From Candidatus Eiseniibacteriota bacterium (GTDB lineage Bacteria > Orphanbacterota > Orphanbacteria > Orphanbacterales > Orphanbacteraceae), in contig JBDROZ010000044.1 in NCBI GenBank assembly GCA_043809585.1, positions 1 through 58,516 on the forward strand: a stretch of DNA of 58,516 nucleotides, in the 5' to 3' direction. A program made the position numbers and the translations under genes. The notes under the pieces were generated by a model. The model was not told the origin of the DNA and made no database searches. It saw only the letters and a program-made list of their open reading frames with translations. Below, piece after piece: positions 12,801-41,761 of this stretch (position 1 is the first letter of the stretch; every line of letters begins with the position of its first letter).

Positions 12801-13206
12801 GGAGCAGCAGCAGATCCGGAAGGGCGTGGAACAGCTCCAGCAGGAGGTGGAAGAGGGGGGCGACGTTCTCGGCCGTCTCGACGATATCATGGAGGAGATG
12901 CGGGGGGTCGAGAAGGATCTAGACAACGCGAACCTCTCCCCCGAGACCCGGGAGCGCCAGGAGCGGATCCTCTCACGGATGCTCGACGCCCAGCGCTCGA
13001 TCCGGGACCGGGGGTACAGGAAAGATCGCCGCTCCCGGACCGGCGAAGCGGTGGAGGCCGGCGCGCCCGACCGCCTGCCCCGAACCCTCTCGGAGGCGCG
13101 GGAGCGGATGCGCGAGGACGCCGCCCACATGCCCGGTTTCGTCTACCCGCCGGAGTACGAAGAGCTGATCCGATCCTACTACCGGGCCCTCGAAGCGAAG
13201 GACTGA
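9853..13206 (+). CDS. DUF4175-like membrane-anchored coiled-coil protein
   Basis: N-terminal TMs, Ig-like region (FPPYTG, DDYGV, YYLEAWDND), long Q/E-rich coiled coil, C-terminal PPEYEELIRSYY. Confidence 0.8.
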   Translation: MNMEQAYRAIRGRLTAIRNRIAGVEATIFLGKAAFAALLLLLLNVLAGWLLPSRTFLRVAAVISLGALLAWIAWALAALVRRWPRLRWIAAEAERATPDLKGDLLRGALDLGRRSADSERFGYSPALIEALVADALRKSDAIRERTLGARNRIRRALPAIPLALLAAVFLFAVVPHRTAGVVRALAPSGREAVLAEVGLQVSPGDCTVEAGETVPVTASFTEYAGKGVHLLTRSGEEEWRAFPMAERRRSEGRLFEGEIPALEADAEYRIRFDNGESPSFRVAVHRPPMMTGLAYRLRFPPYTGLEDLPVRENHGNVTALYGSEVFLEGETNLPVAEAWLAVEGREKALLAAEGRRVHGSFVVDGRFSYEILLVDSSGAMNADPVRYEVMPVEDEKPFVRITHPGENVDLDQEMALDIRFTALDDYGVRSVNLVYRVGEEDERKIALFSTADRITGIERLRPWDLSDIRLLPQDVITYYLEAWDNDDLRGPNRGVSRTYQVRMPSLAEIFQEVTGDRETEIAELEDLYDESRDLEETLDELSREIRRNEEISWDEKKKIENVLDKQKEIEESLRDVASEIDRTTDKLEESRLITPETVERMMELSRLLSEVATDEMRQALQDLQAAMRDLKPEEIQAAAENLELTQQDFMERLDRAIEMLKRLKDLQDTDALAEALQRMAEEQRSLRERTENVEANSEEMNALAEEEDALREELDRTTEELEELAERSEENSPSLAEQLRQAMEELEKRKTNSKMEQSADNMRQGKKSAAQQKQQEAENDLFDLSFRLTETVSAMCSSASQRSQAAFGESIQDLIYLSKGQEGVLVDATGDGRSSSLERRRDLAEKQQEVWTGIGRVMEKIREVGKDSPHLSSMALDLLRRGRGKAEQAASEFEAGRMDLARARGDEAMIHLNRSIVELLRSQENQASSCSNPNGQSQGMQQMQRMTDRQRGLNQESSQVPMPSNNPAAIPMETRAQMSRLAAEQQQIRKGVEQLQQEVEEGGDVLGRLDDIMEEMRGVEKDLDNANLSPETRERQERILSRMLDAQRSIRDRGYRKDRRSRTGEAVEAGAPDRLPRTLSEARERMREDAAHMPGFVYPPEYEELIRSYYRALEAKD

Positions 13207-13213
13207 TCCCACG

Positions 13214-15844
13214 ATGGCATGGCTCGCGGGCGGCGCCCTGTTCGCCCTTTATCTTCTCACCCTCTGTCCGACGGTCTACGTCGGCGACTCGGGGGAGCTG
13301 ATCACCGCCGCGTCGGTGCTCGGTATCGCCCACCCGCCGGGGTATCCTCTCTACGTTCTTCTCGGCCGCCTCTTCTCGCTGTTCCCTTTCGGATCCGTGG
13401 CGCTCCGGGTCAATCTGATGTCCTCCTTCTTCGGCGCCGGCGCCGCGGTCCTTCTCTACCGGTACGTCCGTCTTCTTCTCGCCCGGAGCGCCCCGGAAGG
13501 GGAGAGGAGGCCTTTCGCCGAGGGCGTGGCGGCGCTGACGGTGGTCCTGCTCTTCGGGGCGGCCCGGACCGTCTGGGGGGAGAGCGTGAAGGCCGAGGTG
13601 TACAGCCTGCATCTCTTCGCCGTCGCCGCGATTCTCCTCGTTGCCGAGAGCGGCCGCCGCGGGTCGCTCACCTTCTTTCTTCTCGGCCTGGCGGCGGCGA
13701 ACCACCCGACCGCGCTTCTTCTCGTCCCCGGACTCGCCTTCCGGTTTTTCGGGGAGCGCCGTCCCGGCCCCCGGGAGATCGCCGGGGCGGCGGCCGCCTT
13801 CGCCGGCGGCGTGACCCTCTATCTCTCTCTTCTGGTCCGGCCTTCCGCTCCCGAACTCTTCGCCTGGCGCAAGCCGGAGACCCTCGCCGCCCTCTGGACC
13901 CACGTCACCCGCGGGCAGTACGGCGGTCTCTCCGAACACTCGAGGAGCGTCCCCCTCCTCTTGGCCCAGATCGTCTGGCTCGTCCGGCTGCTCGCCCGGG
14001 AAGGGGGACCGGTTCTTCTGCTCCTTCCGGTCGCGCTCCACCGGGCGTTCCGACCCGCCGCTCCGGCGGCGCTGCGGACCCTCGTGATCCACTTCGTGTT
14101 CTTCTCCGTCGGGCTTCTGCTTCTCCTGAACCACGGGGTCGACGCCCGGGACGGGGCCGTCGCGACGGTCTTCTACCTTCCCGCGGTGCTGACCGCCCTC
14201 GCACTCGCGGCCGTCACCCTCCGGGATCTCGCCGCCCGCCTCGGTCCGGCGTCGTCCCGGTTCGCCGCCGCGGCGCTCCTCCTCCCGGCCCTCTCGTTCG
14301 TCTGGAACGGGTCGGTGTGCGACGCCCGGGGCTTCACCCTCGCGGACGACATCGGCCGGGCCGTGCTCGACGGCGCGCCGATGGACGCGCTCCTTCTCAG
14401 CGAAGGGGACAACAACACCTTCGTCCTGCACTACCTTCAGATCGCCGAGGGGAGGAGGAGGGACGTGACCGTGCTCGACCGGGACCTCAATCTCTTCCCC
14501 CGTCGTTTTGACGGATCCCGGGGGGATCCGGTCGATCGGGAGACGCGGGACCGGGTTGTCGAGGAGGCGGTGCGCCGGGGGGAGAGGCCCGTCTGCAGCG
14601 TGAACGCCTACACCCGGCGACCCGTGGCGGGGAAGAGGCTCGCCTCCATCGGTCCCCTCTATCGTTTCATCGGGGAGGGCGAGGAGGTGCCGCCGAGCGA
14701 CATCGAACGGTACCACCCCGGCGGCTTCGGGCCGGGCCCCCTCCGGGGGGATTACCTGGCGCGACGCTTCGCGGTCTCTTATCTCTCCCGGTGGGCGGAC
14801 CACTACCGGGAAACGGGGAACGAGGAGGGGATCGCCTCGGTGAGGGAGAAGATCCTCGCCGTGGGGGAGGGCCTCAAGGAGGCCCACCTCGTGGTCGGCG
14901 AGGCGCTCGCCGCGGCGGGGGACACGGCGGCGGCGATCGAGGAGATCGATCGATCGGTCCGGGCGGACCCCGAATTCCTGCGGGCCCGCCGGGAGCTCGC
15001 CGACCTTCTTCTCGCCGACGGGGTGGGAGAGCGGGCGGTGGAGGAGTACCGTCGTCTCGTCGACATGACGGGACGGCCGGGGGACAGGCTCAATCTGGCG
15101 AACGCTCTTCTCCTCACCGGCGACCGGGAGGGGGCGGCGGAAGAGTACGGACGGGTGGCGGCGGAGGCGGAAGGGGACAGCACGATCCTCTTTGGCGTCG
15201 CCACGGGCTACGAGAATCTCGGCCGGACCGAGGAGTGGGCCCGGGCCCTCGAGAGTCTCCGGGGGGCCCATCCCGGGATGTTCGCCCATCACGAAGACCT
15301 CGGCGACGCGTACGACCGGCTCGGGAAGGGGGACCCCGCCCGGGAGGCGTACCGGGAGGCGATCCGCCGGGATCCGGGGAACGGGGACCTTTCCTACAAG
15401 CTGGGCCTCCTGCTCCTCCGGCAAGGGTCCCCGGGCGTCGCGGAAGGGCACCTGGCCCGGGCGATCGAGCTCGATCCGGCCCATTCCGGCGCCCTGAACG
15501 CCCTGGCCTACCTCTACGGCGCCGAGAACCGAAACCTGGAGGAGGCCCTCGAGTTCGCGGACCGGGCGATTCGAGCCGCCCCGCCGGGGGAAGCCGGTTA
15601 CTATCACGACACCCGGGGTGTTATCCTGGGGAAACTCGGCCGCGACGAAGAGGCGGCAGAGGCTTTTCGGCTCGCCCTTCGGGAGACGCCGGAGTGGGAC
15701 CGGGCGGCCCTCGCCGAGACGTGGGACCATCTCGGGGAGCTCTCCGAACGGGAGGGGGACGGCGCCGGCGCGGCGGGTTGCCGGGCACGGGCGGATTCGA
15801 TCCGCGGAAGACGGGAACCGGCCCGCCCCGCGGCGGGTGGGTAG
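13214..15844 (+). CDS. DUF2723 / TMEM260-like GT-C membrane protein with C-terminal TPRs
   Basis: GDSGELITAASVLGIAHPPGYPLY, AEVYSL, GDNNTF...YLQ; TPR repeats in the C-terminal third. Confidence 0.85.
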   Translation: MAWLAGGALFALYLLTLCPTVYVGDSGELITAASVLGIAHPPGYPLYVLLGRLFSLFPFGSVALRVNLMSSFFGAGAAVLLYRYVRLLLARSAPEGERRPFAEGVAALTVVLLFGAARTVWGESVKAEVYSLHLFAVAAILLVAESGRRGSLTFFLLGLAAANHPTALLLVPGLAFRFFGERRPGPREIAGAAAAFAGGVTLYLSLLVRPSAPELFAWRKPETLAALWTHVTRGQYGGLSEHSRSVPLLLAQIVWLVRLLAREGGPVLLLLPVALHRAFRPAAPAALRTLVIHFVFFSVGLLLLLNHGVDARDGAVATVFYLPAVLTALALAAVTLRDLAARLGPASSRFAAAALLLPALSFVWNGSVCDARGFTLADDIGRAVLDGAPMDALLLSEGDNNTFVLHYLQIAEGRRRDVTVLDRDLNLFPRRFDGSRGDPVDRETRDRVVEEAVRRGERPVCSVNAYTRRPVAGKRLASIGPLYRFIGEGEEVPPSDIERYHPGGFGPGPLRGDYLARRFAVSYLSRWADHYRETGNEEGIASVREKILAVGEGLKEAHLVVGEALAAAGDTAAAIEEIDRSVRADPEFLRARRELADLLLADGVGERAVEEYRRLVDMTGRPGDRLNLANALLLTGDREGAAEEYGRVAAEAEGDSTILFGVATGYENLGRTEEWARALESLRGAHPGMFAHHEDLGDAYDRLGKGDPAREAYREAIRRDPGNGDLSYKLGLLLLRQGSPGVAEGHLARAIELDPAHSGALNALAYLYGAENRNLEEALEFADRAIRAAPPGEAGYYHDTRGVILGKLGRDEEAAEAFRLALRETPEWDRAALAETWDHLGELSEREGDGAGAAGCRARADSIRGRREPARPAAGG

Positions 15845-15904
15845 ACAAGGAACGGCACCGGGGGGCCGATCCTCGGATCGGGCCAACGATCGGCGGAGAG
15901 TCTC

Positions 15905-17737
15905 TTGAATCGAATCGCACACAAGACGGGATGGATCCTCATCGTCCTGCTCGCTTTCGGTGGCGTGCTCGGCGGACCGGCCCCTTCCCGCGCCCAGGAC
16001 GGCCCCGGCCCCGACCCGCGGTTCCAGCGGCGCCTCGAGGAGGCGAGCCGCCATCTCCGCCGGGGGGGCGCGGAAAGGGCCCGCCGCATTTTCGAGGAGC
16101 TGCTCTCCGAGCGCCCGGAGGACCGGGACGCTTTCGCGGGGCTCATCGCCGCCCGGATCGAGACGTTCGACCTCGAAGGGCTGGGGGAGATGGTGGAGAC
16201 CCGGATCGCGGAGAAGGGGATCGACCCGGAACTCTCCCTTCTTCTCGGCGACGTCCACGCGGCGGCGGGGCGCCGGCCGGAGGCGATGGCCGTCTGGCGG
16301 GCGTCCGTCGATCTCTTCGACAGCCGGGAAGAGGCGTACCGGCTGATCGCTCGGCGAATGGAAGACCGCCGCATGGTCGATGAAGCGATCCTCTTTCTCC
16401 GGGAAGGGCGCCGGGAGTCGGGGGACCGGTTCCAATTCTCCGAAGATCTCTGCCGGCTCCTCGGCTTCGCGGGGAAGATGGACGAGTCCGCCCGGGAGTG
16501 GGTGCGCGCCGCCGCCGCCGGGACCCGGAAGAACGCCGAGGCGGCCCGGCGCCTTCAGGAGCTCCGGAACGACGGGGAAATCGACGCCTATCCGTACGAC
16601 GAGATGAGAGCGATCCTCGATTCCCTCCCCTCCCGGCACGGGGTGCGGGAGATTCTCGCGGAATGCTATCTCGAGGACGGCCGTTGCGACGCCGCGCGCG
16701 GAGAGTATGAGGAGCTCGAGCGGAGCCAACCCCGCTGCGGCACCTATCTCATGCCCTTCGCCAAGCGCGCCGCGGAGCTGGGGTGTTTCGGCGAAGCGGC
16801 GAAAGCGGCCTCCGATCTCGCCCGCCGGTGCGACCGACCTTCGGTGCGGCTCGACGCCGCGTTTCTCCTCGCCCGCGTGCAGAGGGAGGAGGGAAACCCG
16901 GACGGGGCGATCGCCACGTACGACGGGATCCTGAAGGACACGAAGAACGTCCGGGAGACGAACCGGGCCCGGTTCGAGCTCGCCTCGGTGCTCGTCGACG
17001 AGATGGGGGAAGGGGAACGGGCGATCCCGGTGCTCGAGGAGCTGCTCCGGGCGGACAAGTACGATGGGCTGACGGACGCCCGGTTTCTCCTCGCCCGTGG
17101 GCGGCTGATCACGGGAGACTTCGAGGGGGCCCGGACGGAGTACCAATCGATTCACGACACGGCGGAGGACGACGACACGCGGGAGAGGGCGATCTTCGCC
17201 GTCGGCCGCTCCCTGTTCTTCGCGGGCGACATGGACGGCGCCCTCGCCGAGTACCGGCGCGTGGTGGACCAGTATCCGGCGGGGTTCTACCTGAACGACG
17301 CGATCGACCAGTCGATCTTCATCAGCGGGCACCGGGACGCGGGGGACGGGGCCCTCCGGGAGTACGCCGATTGTCTTCTCCGAATCGACCGGAAGGACTT
17401 CGACGGGGGGCGAAAGAAAGTGGAGTCCCTCCTCGAAACGCTCACGGTCTCCCATCTTCGGGACGAGTTGACCTGGCAACTCGGGCGGATCGCCGAAGAG
17501 GAGGGGCTCTACCGGCAGGCGGTGGAGGTCTACGAGCGCCTGGTCGCCGAGTTCCCCGGGGAGCGGCTCGCCCACGTGGCGAGCGTCCGGGTCGCGGACC
17601 TCTACTGCACCCGCCTCGGCGACATTCCCCGGGGCCTCGCGCGGTACGACAAATTCCTGGTCGACCATCCGACCAGCATTCTCGCCGATGAGGCGCGGCG
17701 GAAGAAGCGGGAGGCCCAGAGCGAACACGGGTCGTGA
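15905..17737 (+). CDS. Exported tetratricopeptide repeat protein
   Basis: Signal peptide; repeated helical TPR-like units (A..Y..LV..FP). Confidence 0.8.
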   Translation: MNRIAHKTGWILIVLLAFGGVLGGPAPSRAQDGPGPDPRFQRRLEEASRHLRRGGAERARRIFEELLSERPEDRDAFAGLIAARIETFDLEGLGEMVETRIAEKGIDPELSLLLGDVHAAAGRRPEAMAVWRASVDLFDSREEAYRLIARRMEDRRMVDEAILFLREGRRESGDRFQFSEDLCRLLGFAGKMDESAREWVRAAAAGTRKNAEAARRLQELRNDGEIDAYPYDEMRAILDSLPSRHGVREILAECYLEDGRCDAARGEYEELERSQPRCGTYLMPFAKRAAELGCFGEAAKAASDLARRCDRPSVRLDAAFLLARVQREEGNPDGAIATYDGILKDTKNVRETNRARFELASVLVDEMGEGERAIPVLEELLRADKYDGLTDARFLLARGRLITGDFEGARTEYQSIHDTAEDDDTRERAIFAVGRSLFFAGDMDGALAEYRRVVDQYPAGFYLNDAIDQSIFISGHRDAGDGALREYADCLLRIDRKDFDGGRKKVESLLETLTVSHLRDELTWQLGRIAEEEGLYRQAVEVYERLVAEFPGERLAHVASVRVADLYCTRLGDIPRGLARYDKFLVDHPTSILADEARRKKREAQSEHGS

Positions 17738-17809
17738 CCCGGATCGCTCGCCGACTTTCGGCTGCGGGCCAAGGCCGCGGGCCGGGAACGCGGTTCTCAT
17801 GGAGATTTC

Positions 17810-19084
17810 ATGAAAGCGATCGGTATTCATCCGGCTTTGGGATTCTTCTTCTTCTTTGCCCTTCTGACGATCTCCCCCGCGTCCGCCGGGCTCTACCTGA
17901 TCCCCATGGATCTCGCCCAGACGGACCACCTGAAGGCGTACGGGGTGGCGTACTGGTTTCTGGAGCAGGGGGTGAACGTGCACTGGCTCCTCAACTACCG
18001 GGGGGGCTCGTTTCTCGCCGAGGGGGGCGACATTCTGGAGCGGCGCGCCACCCTGCAGGGGGTCCGGATCGAGCCGGTCTCGGCGTCCGGGAGGGATCGG
18101 ATCCTCGCGGAGGTGGAGGCGAACAACATGGCGGATGTCCTTCTCGAAAAGCCGCCGAGGGTGGCGATTTACACGCCGCCGAACAAGCAGCCTTGGGACG
18201 ACGCCGTGACACTCGCCCTGACGTACGCGGAAATCCCGTATGCGACGCTCTGGGACGAAGAGGTGCTCGCCGGCGACCTGGAGCGGTACGACTGGCTCCA
18301 CCTCCACCACGAGGACTTCACGGGCCAGTACGGGAAATTCTACGTCAGCTTCAAGGACGCCGACTGGTACAAGCGTCAGCAGACCCTCTACGAGCAACTC
18401 GCCCGGGAGGCGGGTTATTCGAAGGTGTCGGAGCATAAGAAGGCGGTGGCCCGGCAGGTGACGCAGTACGTCTCCCGGGGCGGATTTCTCTTCAGCATGT
18501 GTTCCGCCACGGACACGTACGACATCGCTCTGGCTGCGTGGAAGACGGACATTTGCGACGTGATGAACGACGGGGATCCGCCGGACCGGAGCGCGGAGAA
18601 GAAGCTCGACTTCTCCGAGACCTTGGCCTTCGAGAATTTCCGGTTGGTGATGGATCCCCTCGTCTACGAGTACTCGGACATCGACGTGTCGAACTACTCC
18701 CAGGCGGCGGGGGCGGAGAACGACTATTTCACGCTCTTCGACTTTTCGGCGAAGTACGATCCGGTGCCGTGCATGCTCACCCAGAACCACGTGTCGGTGG
18801 TGAAGGGGTTCCTCGGGCAGACGACGGCGTTCCGGAAGTCGCTCATCAAACGGCCCGTGATCATCCTCGGCGAGACGGAGGGGACGGACGTGGTGAAGTA
18901 CCTGCACGGAAACTACGGGCGGGGGACGTTCACCATGCTCGGCGGTCACGACCCGGAGGATTACCAGCACGCGGTCGGCGACCCGCCGACGGACCTTTCG
19001 CTCCACAAGAATTCCCCCGGCTATCGGCTCATCCTGAACAACATCCTCTTCCCGGCGGCCAAGAAGAAGGAGCGCAAGACGTAA
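17810..19084 (+). CDS. Conserved exported protein of an FCB family often labelled 'asparagine synthetase B' (class I GATase-like; function unverified)
   Basis: LIPMD.AQTDHLKAYGVAYW, WLLNYRGGSF, WDDAVT, DWLHLHHEDFTGQYGKF, GGHDPEDY, SPGYRLILNN. Confidence 0.75.
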   Translation: MKAIGIHPALGFFFFFALLTISPASAGLYLIPMDLAQTDHLKAYGVAYWFLEQGVNVHWLLNYRGGSFLAEGGDILERRATLQGVRIEPVSASGRDRILAEVEANNMADVLLEKPPRVAIYTPPNKQPWDDAVTLALTYAEIPYATLWDEEVLAGDLERYDWLHLHHEDFTGQYGKFYVSFKDADWYKRQQTLYEQLAREAGYSKVSEHKKAVARQVTQYVSRGGFLFSMCSATDTYDIALAAWKTDICDVMNDGDPPDRSAEKKLDFSETLAFENFRLVMDPLVYEYSDIDVSNYSQAAGAENDYFTLFDFSAKYDPVPCMLTQNHVSVVKGFLGQTTAFRKSLIKRPVIILGETEGTDVVKYLHGNYGRGTFTMLGGHDPEDYQHAVGDPPTDLSLHKNSPGYRLILNNILFPAAKKKERKT

Positions 19085-19454
19085 GGGGCCCTCGGGGGCT
19101 TTCCCCCTTCGGGACACGGCGGAGTACGGGCGGGTCCTGACCGCTCCCGTCCGCTGCGATGCTCGCCAGTCGCACACTTGTCATTCATGTTCTCTGCTAC
19201 TTGAACCGCGCCTTTCGATCTCGATGATGCCAATACTCGTCGGGGTCTGGTGCTTGGTGGCTGCGCGTCTCGCGGACCCCTGTCGCCGCCACCCGCCCGT
19301 GGTTTCGAATGATCAGCAAGGACTGCCGGCCGGAAGGCCCCTTCCGTCATGCGAGAGGGAGAAGGATGACGTCCGCCCACCCGGGGCCGTGGGCTCCTCA
19401 TCAGTCTCACCGCGCTTAATGCTCTGCAATGAGCCGGAGCATTGCTCGTCTGGC

Positions 19455-19544
19455 TAATTCCGGGGACGCCGTACCTATTTCCAGAGTGGCTTCATCGGCG
19501 GCAGTGATATCATCGAATAAATAAGTATGGCGTCCCCAGAATTA
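19455..19544. repeat. 26-bp imperfect inverted repeat with 38-bp spacer (REP/MITE-like)
   Basis: TAATTCCGGGGACGCCGTACCTATTT (19455-19480) vs AAATAAGTATGGCGTCCCCAGAATTA (19519-19544), 3 mismatches. Confidence 0.8.
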
Positions 19545-19840
19545 CATAATCATCGGCGGGGTGGGGGAGTGGCTGAGGGAGGGATAGAGGGGCAGACGTG
19601 AACGCTCGTCGTGCTGCGGGAGAGAACCCTCCCATTCTCCGGACGCGTAGAGGAGGCGTTACTGAAGACGGCAACAACTCCCCGGTTATGCCCCCATCCC
19701 TCCCGAAGCCGCTCCCCCGCTCGCCGGATCCCCATCGACAGAGAATGGCATCGGCCGCCTGCTCCGCCGCCCTCCGGACGGGTATCGCCCACGAGCACAT
19801 CTTCTCCAGGGTTCAGAGGAGGAGTGCGAGGAAGATGGTC
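19545..19840 (+). ncRNA. Unrecognised structured RNA-like element, copy A
   Basis: Homologous to 29807-30060. Long basal stem with G-U pairs on the + strand and compensatory changes between copies; no conserved ORF. Confidence 0.6.
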
Positions 19841-19935
19841 ACATCACCGTTCCCCCCTAAAGATCACGGTACTTCCTGCCGATTCTCTGAGTGCGGGCAA
19901 GGTATGCCCGATCAAGCCTTTGCACGGGGGGAACG

Positions 19936-26609: not shown

Positions 26610-27412
26610 TCCTGGTCGGCACTTCGGGTTTCCACTTCGACGACTGGGTCGGGCCTTTCTACCCCCCCTACCTCAAGAAGTCGGAGCACTTCGCCTGGTA
26701 CGTCCGCCACTTTCCGGCCCTCGAAGTGAACGGCACCTACTACCGAATTCCCGCGACAGGCACCTTCGACCGGTGGAACCGGATCTCGCCGGACGGCTAC
26801 CCCTTCGTCGTGAAGTTTCACGGCGACGTCACCCACGGGCGGCGGAATCCGGAGGACTCGGTCTACCGCCTGATGCAGGCTCTCGAGCCGATCCGCTCGT
26901 CGGGCAAGCTCGCCGGGCTCCTCGCCCAGTTTCCCTGGGGCTTTCGCGAGGGGGAGGAAGAGCGGGAATATCTCCGGCGCGTCCGGCGCCTCGTGCCGGA
27001 AAGCGATCCCGTTTTCGTCGAGTTCCGCCACGCCGGGTGGGATTCGCCCGAGACCTACCGCTTCCTCGAGGACGAGAGGTTCGGTTTCTGCTCCGTCGAC
27101 GAACCCGCTCTGGGCGGACTCATGCCCCCCGTGGCCCGGCAGACGAACGGCATCGGATACGTCCGCCTTCACGGGCGGAACGAAAAAGCGTGGTGGGGGG
27201 GGGAGGGGGGCGACCGGTACGACTACCTCTACTCGGATGAAGAACTCGGCGAGTGGGTCGAGCGGGTCCGGGAGTTCGAGACGTCGACCGCCCGGTCCTA
27301 CGTCTTCTTCAACAACTGCTACGCCGGGCAGGCGGTCCGGGGGGCGAAGCGGATGCAGGAGCTGCTCGGGATCCCGCCGACCGGAGAGGAGGCGCCTTCT
27401 CTTGACCTCTAA
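26606..27412 (+). CDS. DUF72 (YecE-like) protein
   Basis: VGTSGF..DDWVGPFYP, EVNGTYY, LAQFP, VEFRH, YVRLHGRN, YDYLYS, FFNN; ATGA overlap with dinB. Confidence 0.92.
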   Translation: MILVGTSGFHFDDWVGPFYPPYLKKSEHFAWYVRHFPALEVNGTYYRIPATGTFDRWNRISPDGYPFVVKFHGDVTHGRRNPEDSVYRLMQALEPIRSSGKLAGLLAQFPWGFREGEEEREYLRRVRRLVPESDPVFVEFRHAGWDSPETYRFLEDERFGFCSVDEPALGGLMPPVARQTNGIGYVRLHGRNEKAWWGGEGGDRYDYLYSDEELGEWVERVREFETSTARSYVFFNNCYAGQAVRGAKRMQELLGIPPTGEEAPSLDL

Positions 27413-29729
27413 GATCGGCGGATTTCTCGCGACGCTCATGGAGCGGCGGCGCTTCCGCAATCGGATCGTCCACGTCGAGGAGATCCCCGCCCGGGAGGCG
27501 CGCTGGGCGGATCCGAAGATCCTGCTCACCGACGCGATGCGGAGGGCCCTCGCCGCGACCGGCGTGGAGCGCCTCTACTCCCATCAGGGGGAGGCGATCG
27601 AGGCGGCCCGCCGGGGCGAGCACGTCGTGATCGTGACCGGAACGGCGAGCGGGAAGACCCTCTGCTACAACATCCCGGTCCTCGAGGCGCTGCTCGAGGG
27701 GAAGGGAACAGCGCTCTATCTCTTTCCGACGAAGGCCCTCGCCCAGGACCAGCTCCGGGGCCTCAACCGGCTCGCCGACGCCGATCCCCGCCTCGCCGCG
27801 GAGCTGGTCGCCGGGACCTACGACGGCGACACGAGCCGGTACGGGCGGCGAAAACTCCGGGACCGGGGGAACGCCATCCTGTCCAACCCGGACATGCTTC
27901 ACGCGGGAATCCTCCCGAATCACTCCGCCTGGAGCCGTTTCTTCTCCGGGCTTCGCTTCGTGGTGCTCGACGAGATCCACGCGTACCGGGGGATCTTCGG
28001 GTCGAACGTGGGGAACGTGATCCGCCGCCTCCGGCGGGTGGCGGCCCACTATGGCGCCGATCCGACCTTCCTCTGCTGTTCGGCGACCATCGCGAACCCG
28101 GACGAACTCGCCGGCGCGCTGATCGCAGGCGAGGTCCGGGTGGTCGACCGGGACGGATCCCCCCGGGGCCCGAAGCGCTTCGTCCTCTGGAATCCGCCGG
28201 TGGTCGGAGAAGGGGACGTGGAGCGGCGGAGCTCGAACGTGGAGGGGAAGGACCTGTTGGTGCATCTGGTGCGGGAGGGGGTGCCGACGATCCTCTTCAC
28301 GCGCGCCCGGGTGACGGCGGAACTCGTCTACCGGTACGCCCGGGAAGAGCTGGAGAAGAGGGAGCGGCGCCTCGCGGACCGGGTCGCCGTCTACCGGGGG
28401 GGGTATCTGCCGGAGGAGCGCCGGGAGATCGAACGGCGCCTCTTCTCGGGGGAGCTCCTCGGCGTGTCGAGCACGAACGCCCTGGAGCTCGGCATCGACG
28501 TGGGGAGTCTCGGCGCTTCGATCCTCGTCGGCTTTCCGGGGACCATCGCGAGCACCTGGCAGCAGTCGGGCCGGGCCGGGCGAACCGAGGAGGAATCGCT
28601 CAGCGTCCTCGTCGCGTACAACGACCCGATCGACCAGTACCTGATCCGGAACCCGGGCTATTTCTTCGGGCGGAGCCCGGAGCACGCGATCGTGGACCCC
28701 GGAAACCCGTACATCCTGGAACGTCATCTCCGGTGCGCGGCCCACGAGCTTCCCCTCGAGGAGGGAAACGAGGCGCTCTTCGGCGACCTGTGGCCGGAGA
28801 TCGCCGAGGCATTGGAGGACCACGGGAATCTGACGCGGGTGGAGGACCGCTACTACTGGGCCCTCACCGACTATCCGGCCGCGGAGGTGTCGCTCCGGAA
28901 CATGTCGGACGCGACCTTCACGATTCTGGAGAGGGTCCCGGAGGAGAAGGAGCCCCGCACCATAGGAAACGTCGACGCCGTCAGCGCCCCCGAGCTTCTC
29001 TATCCCGAGGCGATCTACCTTCACGAGGGGGAGACCTACTTTGTCCGGGAACTCGACATGGAGCAGCGCGTCGCGTACGTGGAGCGCCGGGAGGTCGACT
29101 ACTACACCCAGGCGATCGTGGACTCCACGATCCGTCTCGGCGAGGTCCGGGAGAAGGGGGCCCTCCCCGGGGCCGAGACGATCCTCGCCGAGGCGACGGT
29201 CACCTGGATGACCACGGCGTTCAAGAAGATCAAGTTCTACGGACAGGATTCGATCGGATGGGGAAAGCTCGATCTGCCCCCACAAAGTCTCGAGACCGTG
29301 ACGCTGGGGATCGCGCCGGACGTCGAGACGACGGACACCCTCGGCCGGTTCGCCCTGAAGATCGCCGAGGGGCTCGCGGGCGTCCGGAATCTGCTTCTCG
29401 TGGTCCTTCCCCTGCACTCCATGTGCGACCCGAGCAACCTGGGGGGCGTGGTGGAGAGCTCGAACCTCGGCCGGCCGGCGGTCTTCATCTACGACCGATT
29501 CCCGGGCGGGCTCGGGCTGTCGGAGAAGGGCTTCGACACGGCGGCGGAGGTTCTCGCCGCCGCCCTCGAGCTGATCCGCTCCTGCCCCTGTCCGGACGGG
29601 TGCCCTTCCTGCGTCGGCCAGCCCCGGCCCCCCCTCCTCCATCACGATCCCGAACTGATGCGCGGCTACCCGATTCCGAACAAGGCGGCGGCGGAAAAGC
29701 TGCTCGAAATCTGGACGCGGGGGGATTAA
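27402..29729 (+). CDS. mrfA: MrfA/YprA/Hrq1-family SF2 helicase with C-terminal DUF1998 Cys cluster
   Basis: LYSHQ, TGTASGKT, PTKALAQDQ, DEIH, SATIANP, ALELGIDVG, QQSGRAGR, MCD...IYD.FPGG.G...CPCPDGCPSC; start TTG 27402 or ATG 27438. Confidence 0.92.
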   Translation: MTSKIGGFLATLMERRRFRNRIVHVEEIPAREARWADPKILLTDAMRRALAATGVERLYSHQGEAIEAARRGEHVVIVTGTASGKTLCYNIPVLEALLEGKGTALYLFPTKALAQDQLRGLNRLADADPRLAAELVAGTYDGDTSRYGRRKLRDRGNAILSNPDMLHAGILPNHSAWSRFFSGLRFVVLDEIHAYRGIFGSNVGNVIRRLRRVAAHYGADPTFLCCSATIANPDELAGALIAGEVRVVDRDGSPRGPKRFVLWNPPVVGEGDVERRSSNVEGKDLLVHLVREGVPTILFTRARVTAELVYRYAREELEKRERRLADRVAVYRGGYLPEERREIERRLFSGELLGVSSTNALELGIDVGSLGASILVGFPGTIASTWQQSGRAGRTEEESLSVLVAYNDPIDQYLIRNPGYFFGRSPEHAIVDPGNPYILERHLRCAAHELPLEEGNEALFGDLWPEIAEALEDHGNLTRVEDRYYWALTDYPAAEVSLRNMSDATFTILERVPEEKEPRTIGNVDAVSAPELLYPEAIYLHEGETYFVRELDMEQRVAYVERREVDYYTQAIVDSTIRLGEVREKGALPGAETILAEATVTWMTTAFKKIKFYGQDSIGWGKLDLPPQSLETVTLGIAPDVETTDTLGRFALKIAEGLAGVRNLLLVVLPLHSMCDPSNLGGVVESSNLGRPAVFIYDRFPGGLGLSEKGFDTAAEVLAAALELIRSCPCPDGCPSCVGQPRPPLLHHDPELMRGYPIPNKAAAEKLLEIWTRGD

Positions 29730-29806
29730 ACGCAGGGAGGGGGGGACCGGTTCCACACGAGCCCTTCGATACGGACCTTCGGTCCTACTCAGGACGAACG
29801 GGGGGG

Positions 29807-30060
29807 CATGATTCCGGCGGGGCGGCGGATCGGAGGAGGGAGGGGATCGGGGCGGACTGGGACGCTCGTCGTGCGGCGGGAGAGCACCCTCCCATTCTCC
29901 GGGCGCGCGTAATCTGCGGTGCGCAGATCTTCCATGAGTTGCCCGGTTATGCCCCGGCCCCTCCCGATGCCGATTCCCCGTCCCGCCGTCCTCCGGACGG
30001 ATGCTGCTGACGAGCACAACTGATTCGGCGTGCAGAAGAGAAGTCCGAGGAAGATGGGTC
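29807..30060 (+). ncRNA. Unrecognised structured RNA-like element, copy B
   Basis: Homologous to 19545-19840; sits in the mrfA-mrfB intergenic region. Confidence 0.6.
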
Positions 30061-30198
30061 CTTCGGACGATCCGGCGCCCGGAGAAGAGTCCGGCCTCCC
30101 TTTCCCCCTTGCCCGGCGGCCCGGGATGGCCTAATCTACCGGGCAAAGGTCCCCGTTCCGGCTTCGCGCCTTCGCCGCCGAGGAAGTTCGAGAGCCCC

Positions 30199-32468
<2,270 letters not shown>

Positions 32469-33640: not shown

Positions 33641-33821
33641 AAATCCCTGCCCGGATCCGATCCGGTCACACTCATGATGAGCCAACAGTACCCGAAGGGG
33701 AACCTAACTTCGACCGGGTAGAGCCGCCGCTTGTTCGGACGACTTGAGCCGGTCGGGAGGGTGCCCACCTGGATGATGTCGGGTCAATCATGAGGCGGGC
33801 GGTCGACCGTGGCGGGGATTT
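33641..33821 (+). ncRNA. ssrS: 6S RNA
   Basis: 181 nt; terminal stem AAATCCCTGCC/GGCGGGGATTT; 6S-like motifs GAGCCAACA...GGGGAACC and GGGTGCCCACCTG...CGGGTCAA; own promoter and T tract. Confidence 0.85.
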
Positions 33822-34008
33822 TTTGTTCGTTCTTCTTCCCGGACCTTCGGGGTCTTCGTGTCCTCTGCGGTCTCTTCTCCATTTCCGGAAACACGGAGCT
33901 TCCGGAAATACGCCGCGGAGGAGACGACCATCAGGAAGGTCCGAGGGCCGATAATGAATCGCCCGCCGGCCCGGCCGGGGGGCGTCGACGTTCCATCGTG
34001 CTTCCCGG

Positions 34009-35018: not shown

Positions 35019-35822
35019 ATGCAGGCCGGATACCTTCAGTTCGAGCCGGTTTTCGGGAAGCCGGAAGAGAACCTGGAGGCGATCGAGAGAATCGCCTTGG
35101 GGCACGCCGCGGGCGCGGACCTGCTCGTGATCCCCGAACTCGCCACCACCGGCTACCTCTTTCTCTCCAAGGAAGAAGCCCTTTCCCTCGCCGAGGCTTT
35201 TTCGGGGGGGGCGACGGAACGGTGCCTCTCCAAGATCGCCCGGGAGCTCGACGCAGTGGTCGTCGGCGGATTCGCCGAGCGGTCGGGGGATCTCCTCTAC
35301 AACTCGTGCGCCCTCGTTCGCCCGGACGGCACATCCCACGTCTACCGGAAGGCCCAGCTTTTCATGAACGAGAAGGACATCTTCACGCCGGGCGACACGC
35401 CCCTCGAGCCGGTCCGGGGGGCGGGGACCGATCTCGGCCTCATGATCTGCTTCGATTGGTACTACCCCGAGGTGATGCGGGTCCTCGCCCTCGGAGGCGC
35501 GAAGGTATTCTGTCACCCGTCGAATCTCGTGCTGCCCCACTGCCCGGAGTCGATGCGAACCCGGTGCCTCGAGAACCGGGTGTTCGCGATCACGGCGAAC
35601 CGCGTCGGCGCCGACGTGCGTGGCGAAAGCGGCCTCTCCTTCATCGGCATGAGCCAGGTGATCGCGCCGGACGGGCGGGTGCTCCTCAGGGCCCCCTCGA
35701 ACGGAACCCACGTGGGAATCGTCGAGATCGATCCCTCCCTCGCCGAAAACAAGGACATCACGCCCCGCAACCGCTGGACCGACGACCGGCGCTCCGACCT
35801 CTTCAGGCGACTTGCCGATTAA
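35019..35822 (+). CDS. Carbon-nitrogen hydrolase (nitrilase superfamily)
   Basis: Catalytic triad motifs PELATTGY, YRK, ICFDWYYPE; RCLENRVFAITANRVG. Confidence 0.92.
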   Translation: MQAGYLQFEPVFGKPEENLEAIERIALGHAAGADLLVIPELATTGYLFLSKEEALSLAEAFSGGATERCLSKIARELDAVVVGGFAERSGDLLYNSCALVRPDGTSHVYRKAQLFMNEKDIFTPGDTPLEPVRGAGTDLGLMICFDWYYPEVMRVLALGGAKVFCHPSNLVLPHCPESMRTRCLENRVFAITANRVGADVRGESGLSFIGMSQVIAPDGRVLLRAPSNGTHVGIVEIDPSLAENKDITPRNRWTDDRRSDLFRRLAD

Positions 35823-36010
35823 CCTCGATTCTTCATAGAACCTCGGCCCAAAACGCTGACGCTCGCATGATCGCACGCCATCTGCGACAGGGCGCGGCAT
35901 TCACCAATGCTCACATATCGTTGGATATGCTCTGCTTGGTGAATGCTGCGCGCTGCCGCATCTGACGCACTCTCACGCGGTTGCTCTCGAGATTTTATGA
36001 AGAATCAAGG
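35823..36010. mobile_element. MITE (188 bp) with 23-bp TIRs and TTAA target duplication
   Basis: TTAA|CCTCGATTCTTCATAGAACCTCG ... CGAGATTTTATGAAGAATCAAGG|TTAA (20/23); internal hairpin GCGCGGCATTCACCAA/TTGGTGAATGCTGCGC; lower GC. Confidence 0.8.
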
Positions 36011-36814
36011 TTAATGCTTCCGGGTCAGTTCTGCCATTCTTTCCGGTTCGAGGTCTTCTTCTTTCTTTCCCGCCTGGAGGATCTTGGTGATGCGGTCGAC
36101 CATCTCCCTGTCGTCCGCGCAAGGCTGGAGGGTCCCGCGGTTCGCCACCGAGATGGTGCCCGTCTCCTCGGAGACGATGACGACGATGGCGTCCGTCTCC
36201 TCGGCGAGCCCGAGGGCGGCCCGGTGCCGGGTGCCGAGAGTGATGCCCGCCGACCGGTCCTGGGAGAGGGGAAGGATGCAGCCCGCCGCCACGAGGATGG
36301 TGTCCCGGACGACCACCGCGCCGTCGTGCAGGGGCGAGTAGTTCGTGAAAATCGTGACGATCAGCTCCGCCGAGAGCTTCGCGTCCACCCGGTGCCCCGA
36401 CTCGACGATGTTCCGGAGCGAGGCGTCTCGGGAGATGACGATGAGCCCGCCGATCCGTTTCCGCGACATCACCCGCACGCCCTTGGCGATCTCCTCGAGG
36501 GCTTCCGTCGCCTGGATCGGGAGGAACATCCGGAAAAGACGGGAATGCCCCGTCTGGGAAAGGGCGCGCCGGAGCTCCGGCTGGAAGAGGATCACGAAGG
36601 CGACGAGCCAGACCGTCTTCAGGCTGGAGAAGATCCGGTTCAGCCCGGTGAGCTGGAAGGTCTCGGCGAGGGCCGAAGCGAGATAGATGAGGGCGAGCCC
36701 CAAGATCATCTGGGAGGCCCGCGTGCCTTTCACGACGAGGAGGAGCCGGTAGAGGAGGAACCAGACGATCGCGAAGTCGATCAGATCGTAGATCCGGAAT
36801 TGGAGATGCTCCAT
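36011..36814 (-). CDS. dacA: Diadenylate cyclase CdaA/DacA
   Basis: 3 N-terminal TMs, FQPELRRAL, SPLHDGAVV, GTRHRAALG, VSEETG. Confidence 0.95.
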   Translation of the reverse strand: MEHLQFRIYDLIDFAIVWFLLYRLLLVVKGTRASQMILGLALIYLASALAETFQLTGLNRIFSSLKTVWLVAFVILFQPELRRALSQTGHSRLFRMFLPIQATEALEEIAKGVRVMSRKRIGGLIVISRDASLRNIVESGHRVDAKLSAELIVTIFTNYSPLHDGAVVVRDTILVAAGCILPLSQDRSAGITLGTRHRAALGLAEETDAIVVIVSEETGTISVANRGTLQPCADDREMVDRITKILQAGKKEEDLEPERMAELTRKH

Positions 36815-41656: not shown

Positions 41657-41687
41657 GGAAGGTCTTCAGTGTGGGGTGGGAACAAAG

Positions 41688-41761
41688 TGCCGGTGCAGGG
41701 ACTCGAACCCCGGACACGCGGATTATGATTCCGCTGCTCTAACCAACTGAGCTACACCGGC
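41688..41761 (-). tRNA. tRNA-Met (CAT), non-initiator; CCA not encoded
   Basis: GCCGGTGTAGCTCAGTTGGTTAGAGCAGCGGAATCATAATCCGCGTGTCCGGGGTTCGAGTCCCTGCACCGGCA folds as a cloverleaf; G1-C72 pair. Confidence 0.95.

Follow-up and report, generated by a model that had tools for sequence, protein, structure and literature searches.

The question raised by this locus is what kind of element accounts for two similar, hairpin-forming stretches of noncoding DNA that lie about 10 kb apart in a Candidatus Eiseniibacteriota genome. The window, meaning the whole stretch of DNA that was analyzed, is 58,516 nt long; copy A lies at positions 19545 to 19840 and copy B at 29807 to 30060. The original prediction was that A and B represent a new RNA family, and pairwise alignment reproduced exactly the similarities on which it was based: five common blocks with 39/41, 14/14, 11/11, 9/9, and 12/12 identities, and spacers of 9 nt and 27 nt that are equal in length and different in sequence. 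Each copy folds as a long hairpin with interruptions, and in both the + strand folds better than the − strand (copy A, −141.8 kcal/mol [z = −3.15] versus −138.1 kcal/mol [z = −2.01]; copy B, −142.9 kcal/mol [z = −5.21] versus −115.6 kcal/mol [z = −1.69]), most clearly in copy B. Neither copy matched an Rfam 15 family at the gathering score, and at an E value of ≤10 there were only far sub-threshold matches to hairpin-type miRNA precursor models, none of them credible, as expected from the claim that no known RNA would match. Neither a strong Rfam match nor a match to the end of a known insertion sequence (IS) was found. The only Rfam 15 matches in the window were a tRNA-Met (41687 to 41761, − strand) and a 6S RNA (33641 to 33822, + strand; 57.1 bits against a gathering score of 46.4).

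The element had been described as present twice, which is true of the window only. The genome to which the window belongs (4.24 Mb in 123 contigs, 66% G+C) was searched by iterated nhmmer after BLAST gave dozens of matches. The longer part of the element, a hairpin of about 167 nt that we call M1, had 98 nhmmer matches on 45 contigs, 64 of them full length, and the shorter part, a tail of about 72 nt called M2, had 86. These counts are lower bounds, because seven M1 matches are at contig edges, where the repeats break the assembly. We conclude, with a probability of about 0.75, that A and B are members of a lineage-specific noncoding interspersed repeat family that spread as a nonautonomous mobile element via + strand single-stranded DNA (ssDNA) or RNA. 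Among the points that we counted for a mobile repeat are the copy number, the dispersal, the intergenic position, the truncated and nested copies, the absence from relatives, and the two-sided changes in the stem. Among the points that we counted against this explanation are that there is no target-site duplication (TSD), no partner enzyme, and no pair of copies more than 97% identical, and that the center of M1 is more conserved than its ends. The most likely reading is that A and B are repeat DNA, either selfish or structural, rather than a gene-specific regulatory RNA.

In copy A, M1 lies at 19553 to 19726 on the + strand and is an imperfect long hairpin of about 167 to 178 nt, as delimited by nhmmer, a covariance model, folding, and pair counts. 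Two arms of about 45 nt surround a conserved center (ACGCTCGTCG; GGGAG..CCCTCCCATTCTCCGG; CTCCCCGGTTATG). The module scored 161 bits with nhmmer (at 19553 to 19719) and 186.6 bits with the covariance model R1 (at 19549 to 19726). M2 of copy A (19766 to 19837, + strand) corresponds to nhmmer model positions 1 to 72 and was placed with an alignment of 57 M2 copies; the 3′ hairpin half that most copies have is degenerate in copy A. A gap relative to copy B marks a private insert of 44 nt between the two modules of copy A (19720 to 19763, + strand). In canonical copies, which have no insert, M1 and M2 are about 5 nt apart; contigs that carry other copies join position 19719 to 19764 with 2 letters between, and the genome copy number falls to 3 to 5 across the insert. 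In copy B, M1 is at 29815 to 29980 on the + strand (129.8 bits with nhmmer, 165.9 bits with R1, and the + strand fold with a z of −5.21 given above), and M2, identified by the M2 profile and the alignment, is at 29985 to 30067 on the same strand, including the 3′ hairpin (TCCGAGG/CTTCGGA, 30044 to 30067).

Neither copy stands alone. A per-base copy-number profile showed that both are parts of a patchwork of repeats, which runs from 19085 to 19845 upstream of and including copy A and from 29731 to 30066 around copy B. Six modules (M0, M0b, Mx, M3, M1, and M2) were modeled, and together they occupy 171 loci and at least 32 kb of the genome. M0 (207 nt, 64 matches) lies at 19123 to 19328 on the + strand, within the intergenic mosaic of copy A and 5′ of that copy; next comes M0b (67 nt, 20 matches; 19354 to 19420, + strand), which was defined by the copy-number profile and a profile search and has a conserved CUGAUGAG, then a GC hairpin and GGAC/GAAC. 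Mx (four matches; 19452 to 19544) separates M0b from M1 in copy A; it has inverted arms of about 19 nt (GGGGACGCC...) and resembles the repeats that flank a Y1 (HUH) transposase-like gene of the same genome. Directly upstream of copy B is M3 (62 nt, 67 matches; 29737 to 29795, + strand), which contains a GGACC-TTCG-GGTCC hairpin.

The modules recur in the order M0-M0b-M3-M1-M2, all in the same orientation, and each is also found alone and in other orders and orientations. Among the 86 M1 matches with an intact 3′ end, 24 are followed within 60 nt, mostly after 5 to 6 nt, by an M2 in the same orientation. The remaining M2 copies are tails behind other hairpin "heads," including a GGGGGACAT...GTGTCCCCC hairpin. 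Some M1 copies are truncated, split, or nested, or end at contig ends, and in two of them (C23:26653-26908 and C4:11898-12151) the central GGGAG hairpin has given way to an unrelated domain (about 96 nt), with both arms retained. M0 appears to have a history of its own. Its two ends (about 45 to 50 nt each) are adjacent 23, 46, and 23 times in the sister-genus genomes G004, G007, and G008, respectively, and short M0 variants without the middle part occur in the genome studied here. Because the ends recur in a sister genus, M0 is taken as a separate and older family than M1, M2, and M3. M3 was absent by BLAST from all nine other genomes of the phylum that were searched, versus 41 BLAST matches in its own genome.

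The element consists of an M1 hairpin "head" (about 167 nt), often followed after 5 to 10 nt by an M2 "tail" (about 72 to 90 nt), and in intergenic mosaics both are combined with the other modules. The copies differ by 1- to 2-nt indels and share no conserved reading frame, so M1 is noncoding. Pairwise identity among M1 copies has a median of 0.77 (0.90 to the nearest neighbor, with a maximum of 0.97), and all four combinations of variants occur in 1,266 of 2,211 (57%) informative column pairs, a pattern that points to either exchange between copies or recurrent toggling. On these figures, the M1 copies are old and mosaic.

The original prediction also held that the basal stem is kept by compensatory changes, and the larger set of copies bears this out. 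In a 47-pair structure evaluated over 60 copies, 90.9% of cells were paired, compared with 86.8% ± 0.3% in shuffled alignments; when the partners of the M1 stem were slid out of register, only 46% to 59% of cells paired. Cells in which both sides of a pair had changed numbered 108 versus 38.4 in shuffles. Neither the paired fraction nor the number of two-sided changes was reached in any of 500 shuffles. The number of pairs with any two-sided change was unexceptional (13 versus 11.0, reached by 70 of the 500 shuffles).

The predicted preference of G-U pairs for the + strand also held, with 258 G:U cells versus 53 A:C cells in the stems of 63 copies. Each Watson-Crick pair has one transition that leads to G:U and one that leads to A:C, so neutral decay predicts a 1:1 ratio. 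Pair types present in three or more copies departed strongly from this ratio (237 G:U versus 31 A:C, in 15 versus 4 columns), whereas pair types present in only one or two copies matched it (21 versus 22). The shared variants would have been inherited from lineages that kept copying, and so would have been filtered for pairing on the + strand; the rare ones probably arose after insertion. That the G:U excess is found in the former and is absent from the latter argues for a single-stranded + strand intermediate, either ssDNA or RNA, that would have to fold into the hairpin for the family to spread as a nonautonomous mobile element. On modest counts, the contrast between shared and rare variants suggests that the M1 fold is selected during propagation and not for a function at individual loci.

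Two details of the predicted structure fared less well. The GA/GA tandem mismatches, said to be conserved, occur in most copies (45 of 63), but 11 of the 63 have Watson-Crick pairs instead, and hence the mismatches are not required. Among the 60 copies, 95% of the cells of the GGGAG/CTCCC hairpin are paired, but the hairpin never covaries. The interior of M1 folds differently among copies, and for this reason we propose no structure for it; the RNAalifold consensus is partial, with 31 pairs. The center of M1 is more conserved than its ends, the opposite of what is typical for a transposon with terminal inverted repeats (TIRs). The central block (GGGAG..CCGG) had 7 rare variants versus 20.6 expected (P = 0.0005, uncorrected, with seven blocks tested), and this mutation-poor block leaves room for a function in place. 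The 3′ hairpin of M2 was paired in 84.2% of cells, which is not above the control (shuffle mean, 82.1%; maximum, 85.4%), and one of its pairs covaries. We considered whether the M1 loop pairs with M2 (GCTCGT with ACGAGC) and rejected this, since inspection of adjacent M1-M2 pairs revealed no covariation.

We determined the positions of the 72 M1 copies of at least 120 nt relative to genes called by a simple GC3-based script (2,716 genes covering 77% of the genome, with approximate starts). Eleven copies are at contig edges; of the other 61, 55 lie between two called genes and 6 overlap one. Between codirectional genes there are 15 copies in the same orientation as the genes and 19 antisense to them, and there are 14 copies between convergent and 7 between divergent genes; the spacers of the genome as a whole are 63.8% codirectional, 17.8% convergent, and 18.4% divergent. 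The distance from M1 to a gene varies from 21 to 5,705 nt, and the downstream gene is co-oriented with M1 in 22 of the 55 copies. There was no replication-strand bias (31 of 72 copies with positive GC skew; P = 0.29), in a test of low power because the skew is weak (median, 0.015). With about 100 dispersed intergenic copies and no preferred orientation or distance, a 5′ leader or riboswitch is excluded. The part of the original prediction that invoked a cis-regulatory RNA is also contradicted by the absence of M1 from the orthologous spacers and the genomes of relatives. No ribozyme signature was found, and of the three alternatives in the prediction only a mobile element fits.

Several other readings of the two mosaics were tried and rejected. 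A hammerhead ribozyme in M0b (the CUGAUGAG motif, 19354 to 19420, − strand) scored 18 bits against a gathering score of 37; it was rejected because none of 15 further M0b copies matched at an E value of ≤1 and because the core is noncanonical. There was no hammerhead match in M1 or M2. A small open reading frame (ORF) starting from a Shine-Dalgarno sequence and an ATG at the end of M2 was dismissed, as only 12 of 58 copies have the ATG. The 2,096-amino-acid (aa) ORF beside copy A (12887 to 19177, − strand) is a spurious high-GC frame with no Pfam match; opposite it, the + strand carries genes at 13214 to 15844 (TMEM260-like plus TPR), 15905 to 17737 (TPR), and 17810 to 19084. Recurrent neighboring proteins were considered as partners of the repeats: one cluster has 19 members, all secreted proteins that share FlgD_ig or Por_Secre_tail ends, and another has 5, all small secreted proteins encoded next to M0; neither includes a nucleic acid enzyme. 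The sequencing runs that were compared are assembled contigs and are uninformative for expression; in an RNA run of another study (share, 0.10), contigs matched the upstream gene and, within M0, its 3′ part (19260 to 19328), and none matched M1 or M2.

The family appears to be restricted to a narrow lineage. M1, with or without M2, was found in none of the nine other genomes of the phylum by BLAST, and M1 was found in none of them by the covariance model R1, which was built from 60 copies. Exact-pattern scans of species-representative genomes and metagenome contigs gave no match to M1, although the records of its own genome are possibly outside that scan, and there was none in plasmid and phage collections. 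A full-text literature search with the term "Eisenbacteria" gave, among the matches listed, no paper on repeats in this phylum.

Copy B lies between two genes that are conserved in the family. Upstream is an mrfA-like helicase gene (27237 to 29729, + strand; Pfam DEAD, Helicase_C, WHD_HRQ1, and MZB) and downstream an mrfB-like gene for an exonuclease with an RNase H fold (30199 to 30999, + strand; Pfam RNase_H_2). Orthologues of the mrfB-like gene are present in all eight family relatives, and the mrfA/mrfB-like pair is syntenic in relatives. The copy B mosaic begins 2 nt past the stop codon of the mrfA-like gene; the copy A mosaic likewise begins directly past the stop codon of its upstream gene (19084). 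The spacer between the mrfA- and mrfB-like genes is 470 nt here, about 336 nt of which is repeat, versus about 105 to 205 nt, estimated from tblastn ends, in the four relatives (of seven loci examined) in which both genes were on the fetched locus. Copy B is an insertion into a conserved gene-pair spacer, and locus B is, on this comparison of spacers, the only clean empty site. At locus A the spacers of relatives give no uniform picture, with lengths of about 75 nt (G001), about 870 nt (G002), and about 1,390 nt (G005).

Searches for the means of mobilization gave no partner for M1. Among 63 copies, no TSD of 3, 4, 5, 6, or 8 nt was found above permuted controls at offsets within ±10 nt (best counts of 30, 9, 5, 2, and 1, respectively, versus permuted maxima of 32, 9, 5, 2, and 1). 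Self-comparison of the genome gave no multicopy IS, and every segment of at least 350 bp that it returned was in two copies, bearing in mind that a metagenome-assembled genome may lack collapsed IS copies. One IS110-family element is present in two copies that are 87% identical (C82:18644-20302 and C23:33779-35439), one with an intact 392-aa frame and the other with a stop. These IS110-like elements have no sequence in common with the repeat modules, there is no M1 beside the two or three IS110-like genes, and Rfam gave no match to a bridge RNA at the element ends. In the same genome there was no match to TnpB past the Pfam cutoff, and none of three matches to reverse transcriptase adjoins M1.

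The genome also has two Y1_Tnp genes, one intact (a 227-aa frame) and one with a stop. The intact gene (contig C51, about 15400 to 16220) is flanked on both sides, within C51:15160-16340, by repeats that start with GGGGGACAC and are present in 25 to 57 copies; they fit the GGGGWSAS motif given for TIRYT repeats in the available part of PMC3733652. Going by its repeats, the Y1 gene would form with them a REPIN/TIRYT-like system separate from M1. No module was found within 2 kb of either Y1 gene, and Y1 genes are present in six of the nine relatives, none of which has M1. [quoted passage not shown] One copy is in the window (35823 to 36010, with TTAA at 35819 to 35822 and 36011 to 36014), and others are at C51:25913-26093, C52:39917-40096, and C70:627-806. 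Three copies of this MITE, with both orientations represented, are inserted in M1 hairpins at the GGGAG loop, which may be a preferred target for it.

It is unlikely, in our judgment, that the copies act where they lie as transcribed RNA elements, such as stabilizers of mRNA ends, processing sites, insulators, or a multicopy small RNA, with the + strand fold and the conserved center as the functional part. The mean folding energy of M1 is −110.9 kcal/mol versus −103.3 kcal/mol, with the + strand the more stable; this, the excess of G:U over A:C cells, the two-sided changes in the stem, and the dearth of rare variants in the central block (7 versus 20.6) would all be expected of such an RNA, and the comparable repeats bcr1, ERIC, and Correia have been reported to be transcribed and to affect mRNA (PMC3184786, in the part available). 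However, a local function is hard to reconcile with copies that are as often antisense as co-oriented in codirectional spacers (19 versus 15), that lie 21 to 5,705 nt from genes, and that are in many cases truncated, split, or nested; there is no T-run after the hairpin, M1 is in none of the nine relatives searched, and the rare variants of the stem favor neither strand (21 versus 22). The mutation-poor center also enters a very unlikely variant of the mobile-repeat explanation, in which M1-M2 would be the moving part of an enzyme-orphan mobile class, a rod-like structured nucleic acid of about 170 to 250 nt that would have a conserved central domain and would copy itself via a single-stranded + strand intermediate, possibly RNA. 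Copying would then be by host or unrecognized machinery, and some copies would have been co-opted in place, as the conserved center hints.

Two known kinds of mobilization bear on the same evidence. IS200/IS605-type transposition is not expected to produce a TSD, so the lack of one in M1 is what would be seen if a RAYT- or TIRYT-type Y1 (HUH) transposase acted on M1 and M2, moving them like REPs and BIMEs as top-strand ssDNA with an unusually long hairpin. Strand-specific selection of the hairpin fits ssDNA recognition, many solo M2 tails sit behind GGGGGACAT-type hairpins, and the genome has the intact 227-aa Y1_Tnp gene, flanked by the GGGGGACAC repeats that fit GGGGWSAS (PMC3733652, available part), and the one with a stop. 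We nevertheless regard this as improbable: M1 flanks neither Y1 gene and is absent from the six relatives that have such genes, the motif is absent from M1 ends, M1 is 4 to 8 times as long as REPs, and the copies show no replication-strand bias (31 of 72, a comparison of low power). The lack of a TSD has the opposite bearing on the proposal of a classical MITE, in which M1 would be a DNA transposon with an internal deletion whose TIRs are acted on in trans by the transposase of a parent IS. The size, the inverted arms, the intergenic position, and the high copy number of M1 agree with the MITE description in the accessible text of PMC3184786, and the genuine family described above shows that MITEs occur in this genome. 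Yet the TSD counts are not above the control, there is no multicopy IS and no IS end that resembles M1, the arms vary while the center is conserved, and a strand-asymmetric excess of G:U is unexpected if the TIRs are recognized as double-stranded DNA; a MITE origin is therefore highly improbable. The interspersed family spread via single-stranded + strand DNA or RNA remains our preferred explanation.

This result removes a false lead, in that an apparent new structured RNA with covariation is most likely repeat DNA; covariation together with a G-U strand bias was not enough to tell these two readings apart. The comparison of shared with rare stem variants (237:31 versus 21:22) is a simple and reusable test that distinguishes a role in spreading from a local function. 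The analysis also documents dense, modular intergenic hairpin repeats in an uncultured lineage, amounting to at least 32 kb and breaking the assembly. The strand-specific selection on its structure makes M1 modestly interesting; should it prove to move via ssDNA or RNA with no known enzyme, the mobile-DNA field would find that of real interest.

M1 shares features with several known classes of bacterial repeats. With REP/BIME, REPIN-RAYT, and TIRYT systems, as described in the available parts of PMC3184786 and PMC3733652, it shares extragenic G+C-rich hairpins, mosaics of variable order, the lack of a TSD, and the presence of a Y1-like gene in the genome. Like REPs and BIMEs, M1 is found in extragenic mosaic clusters. 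However, in those descriptions REPs are 20 to 40 bp, whereas M1 is 167 to 178 nt long and has an internal domain that is conserved; nor does M1 lie beside the Y1 gene or carry the GGGGWSAS or GTAG/CGTC tags. MITEs such as Correia, ERIC, Nezha, and Chunjie are, in the portion of PMC3184786 available, like M1 in being noncoding, lineage-restricted, and present in many intergenic copies that would form long stem-loops if transcribed, with lengths of 100 to 235 bp; the same text defines MITEs by TIRs and TSDs and derives them from ISs. M1 has inverted arms around a core without a transposase gene, but it has neither the TSD nor a matching autonomous IS. Because M1 lacks the TSD and parent IS of a MITE and the size and RAYT flanking of a REP, we file it with the broad kind of bacterial interspersed hairpin/mosaic repeats and assign it to neither of those two families. 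Of the elements compared, the closest to M1 is bcr1 of the Bacillus cereus group, about 155 bp long with a long cruciform-like stem that is kept by base-pair compensatory changes (PMC3184786, available part). As described there, both are noncoding and interspersed, both have a long stem with compensatory changes, and the distribution of neither is conserved between relatives; bcr1 has flanking 5-bp direct repeats, whereas none were detected for M1, and bcr1 is known to be transcribed (PMC3184786). M1 differs from it further in usually lying within mosaics, often with the separate M2 tail.
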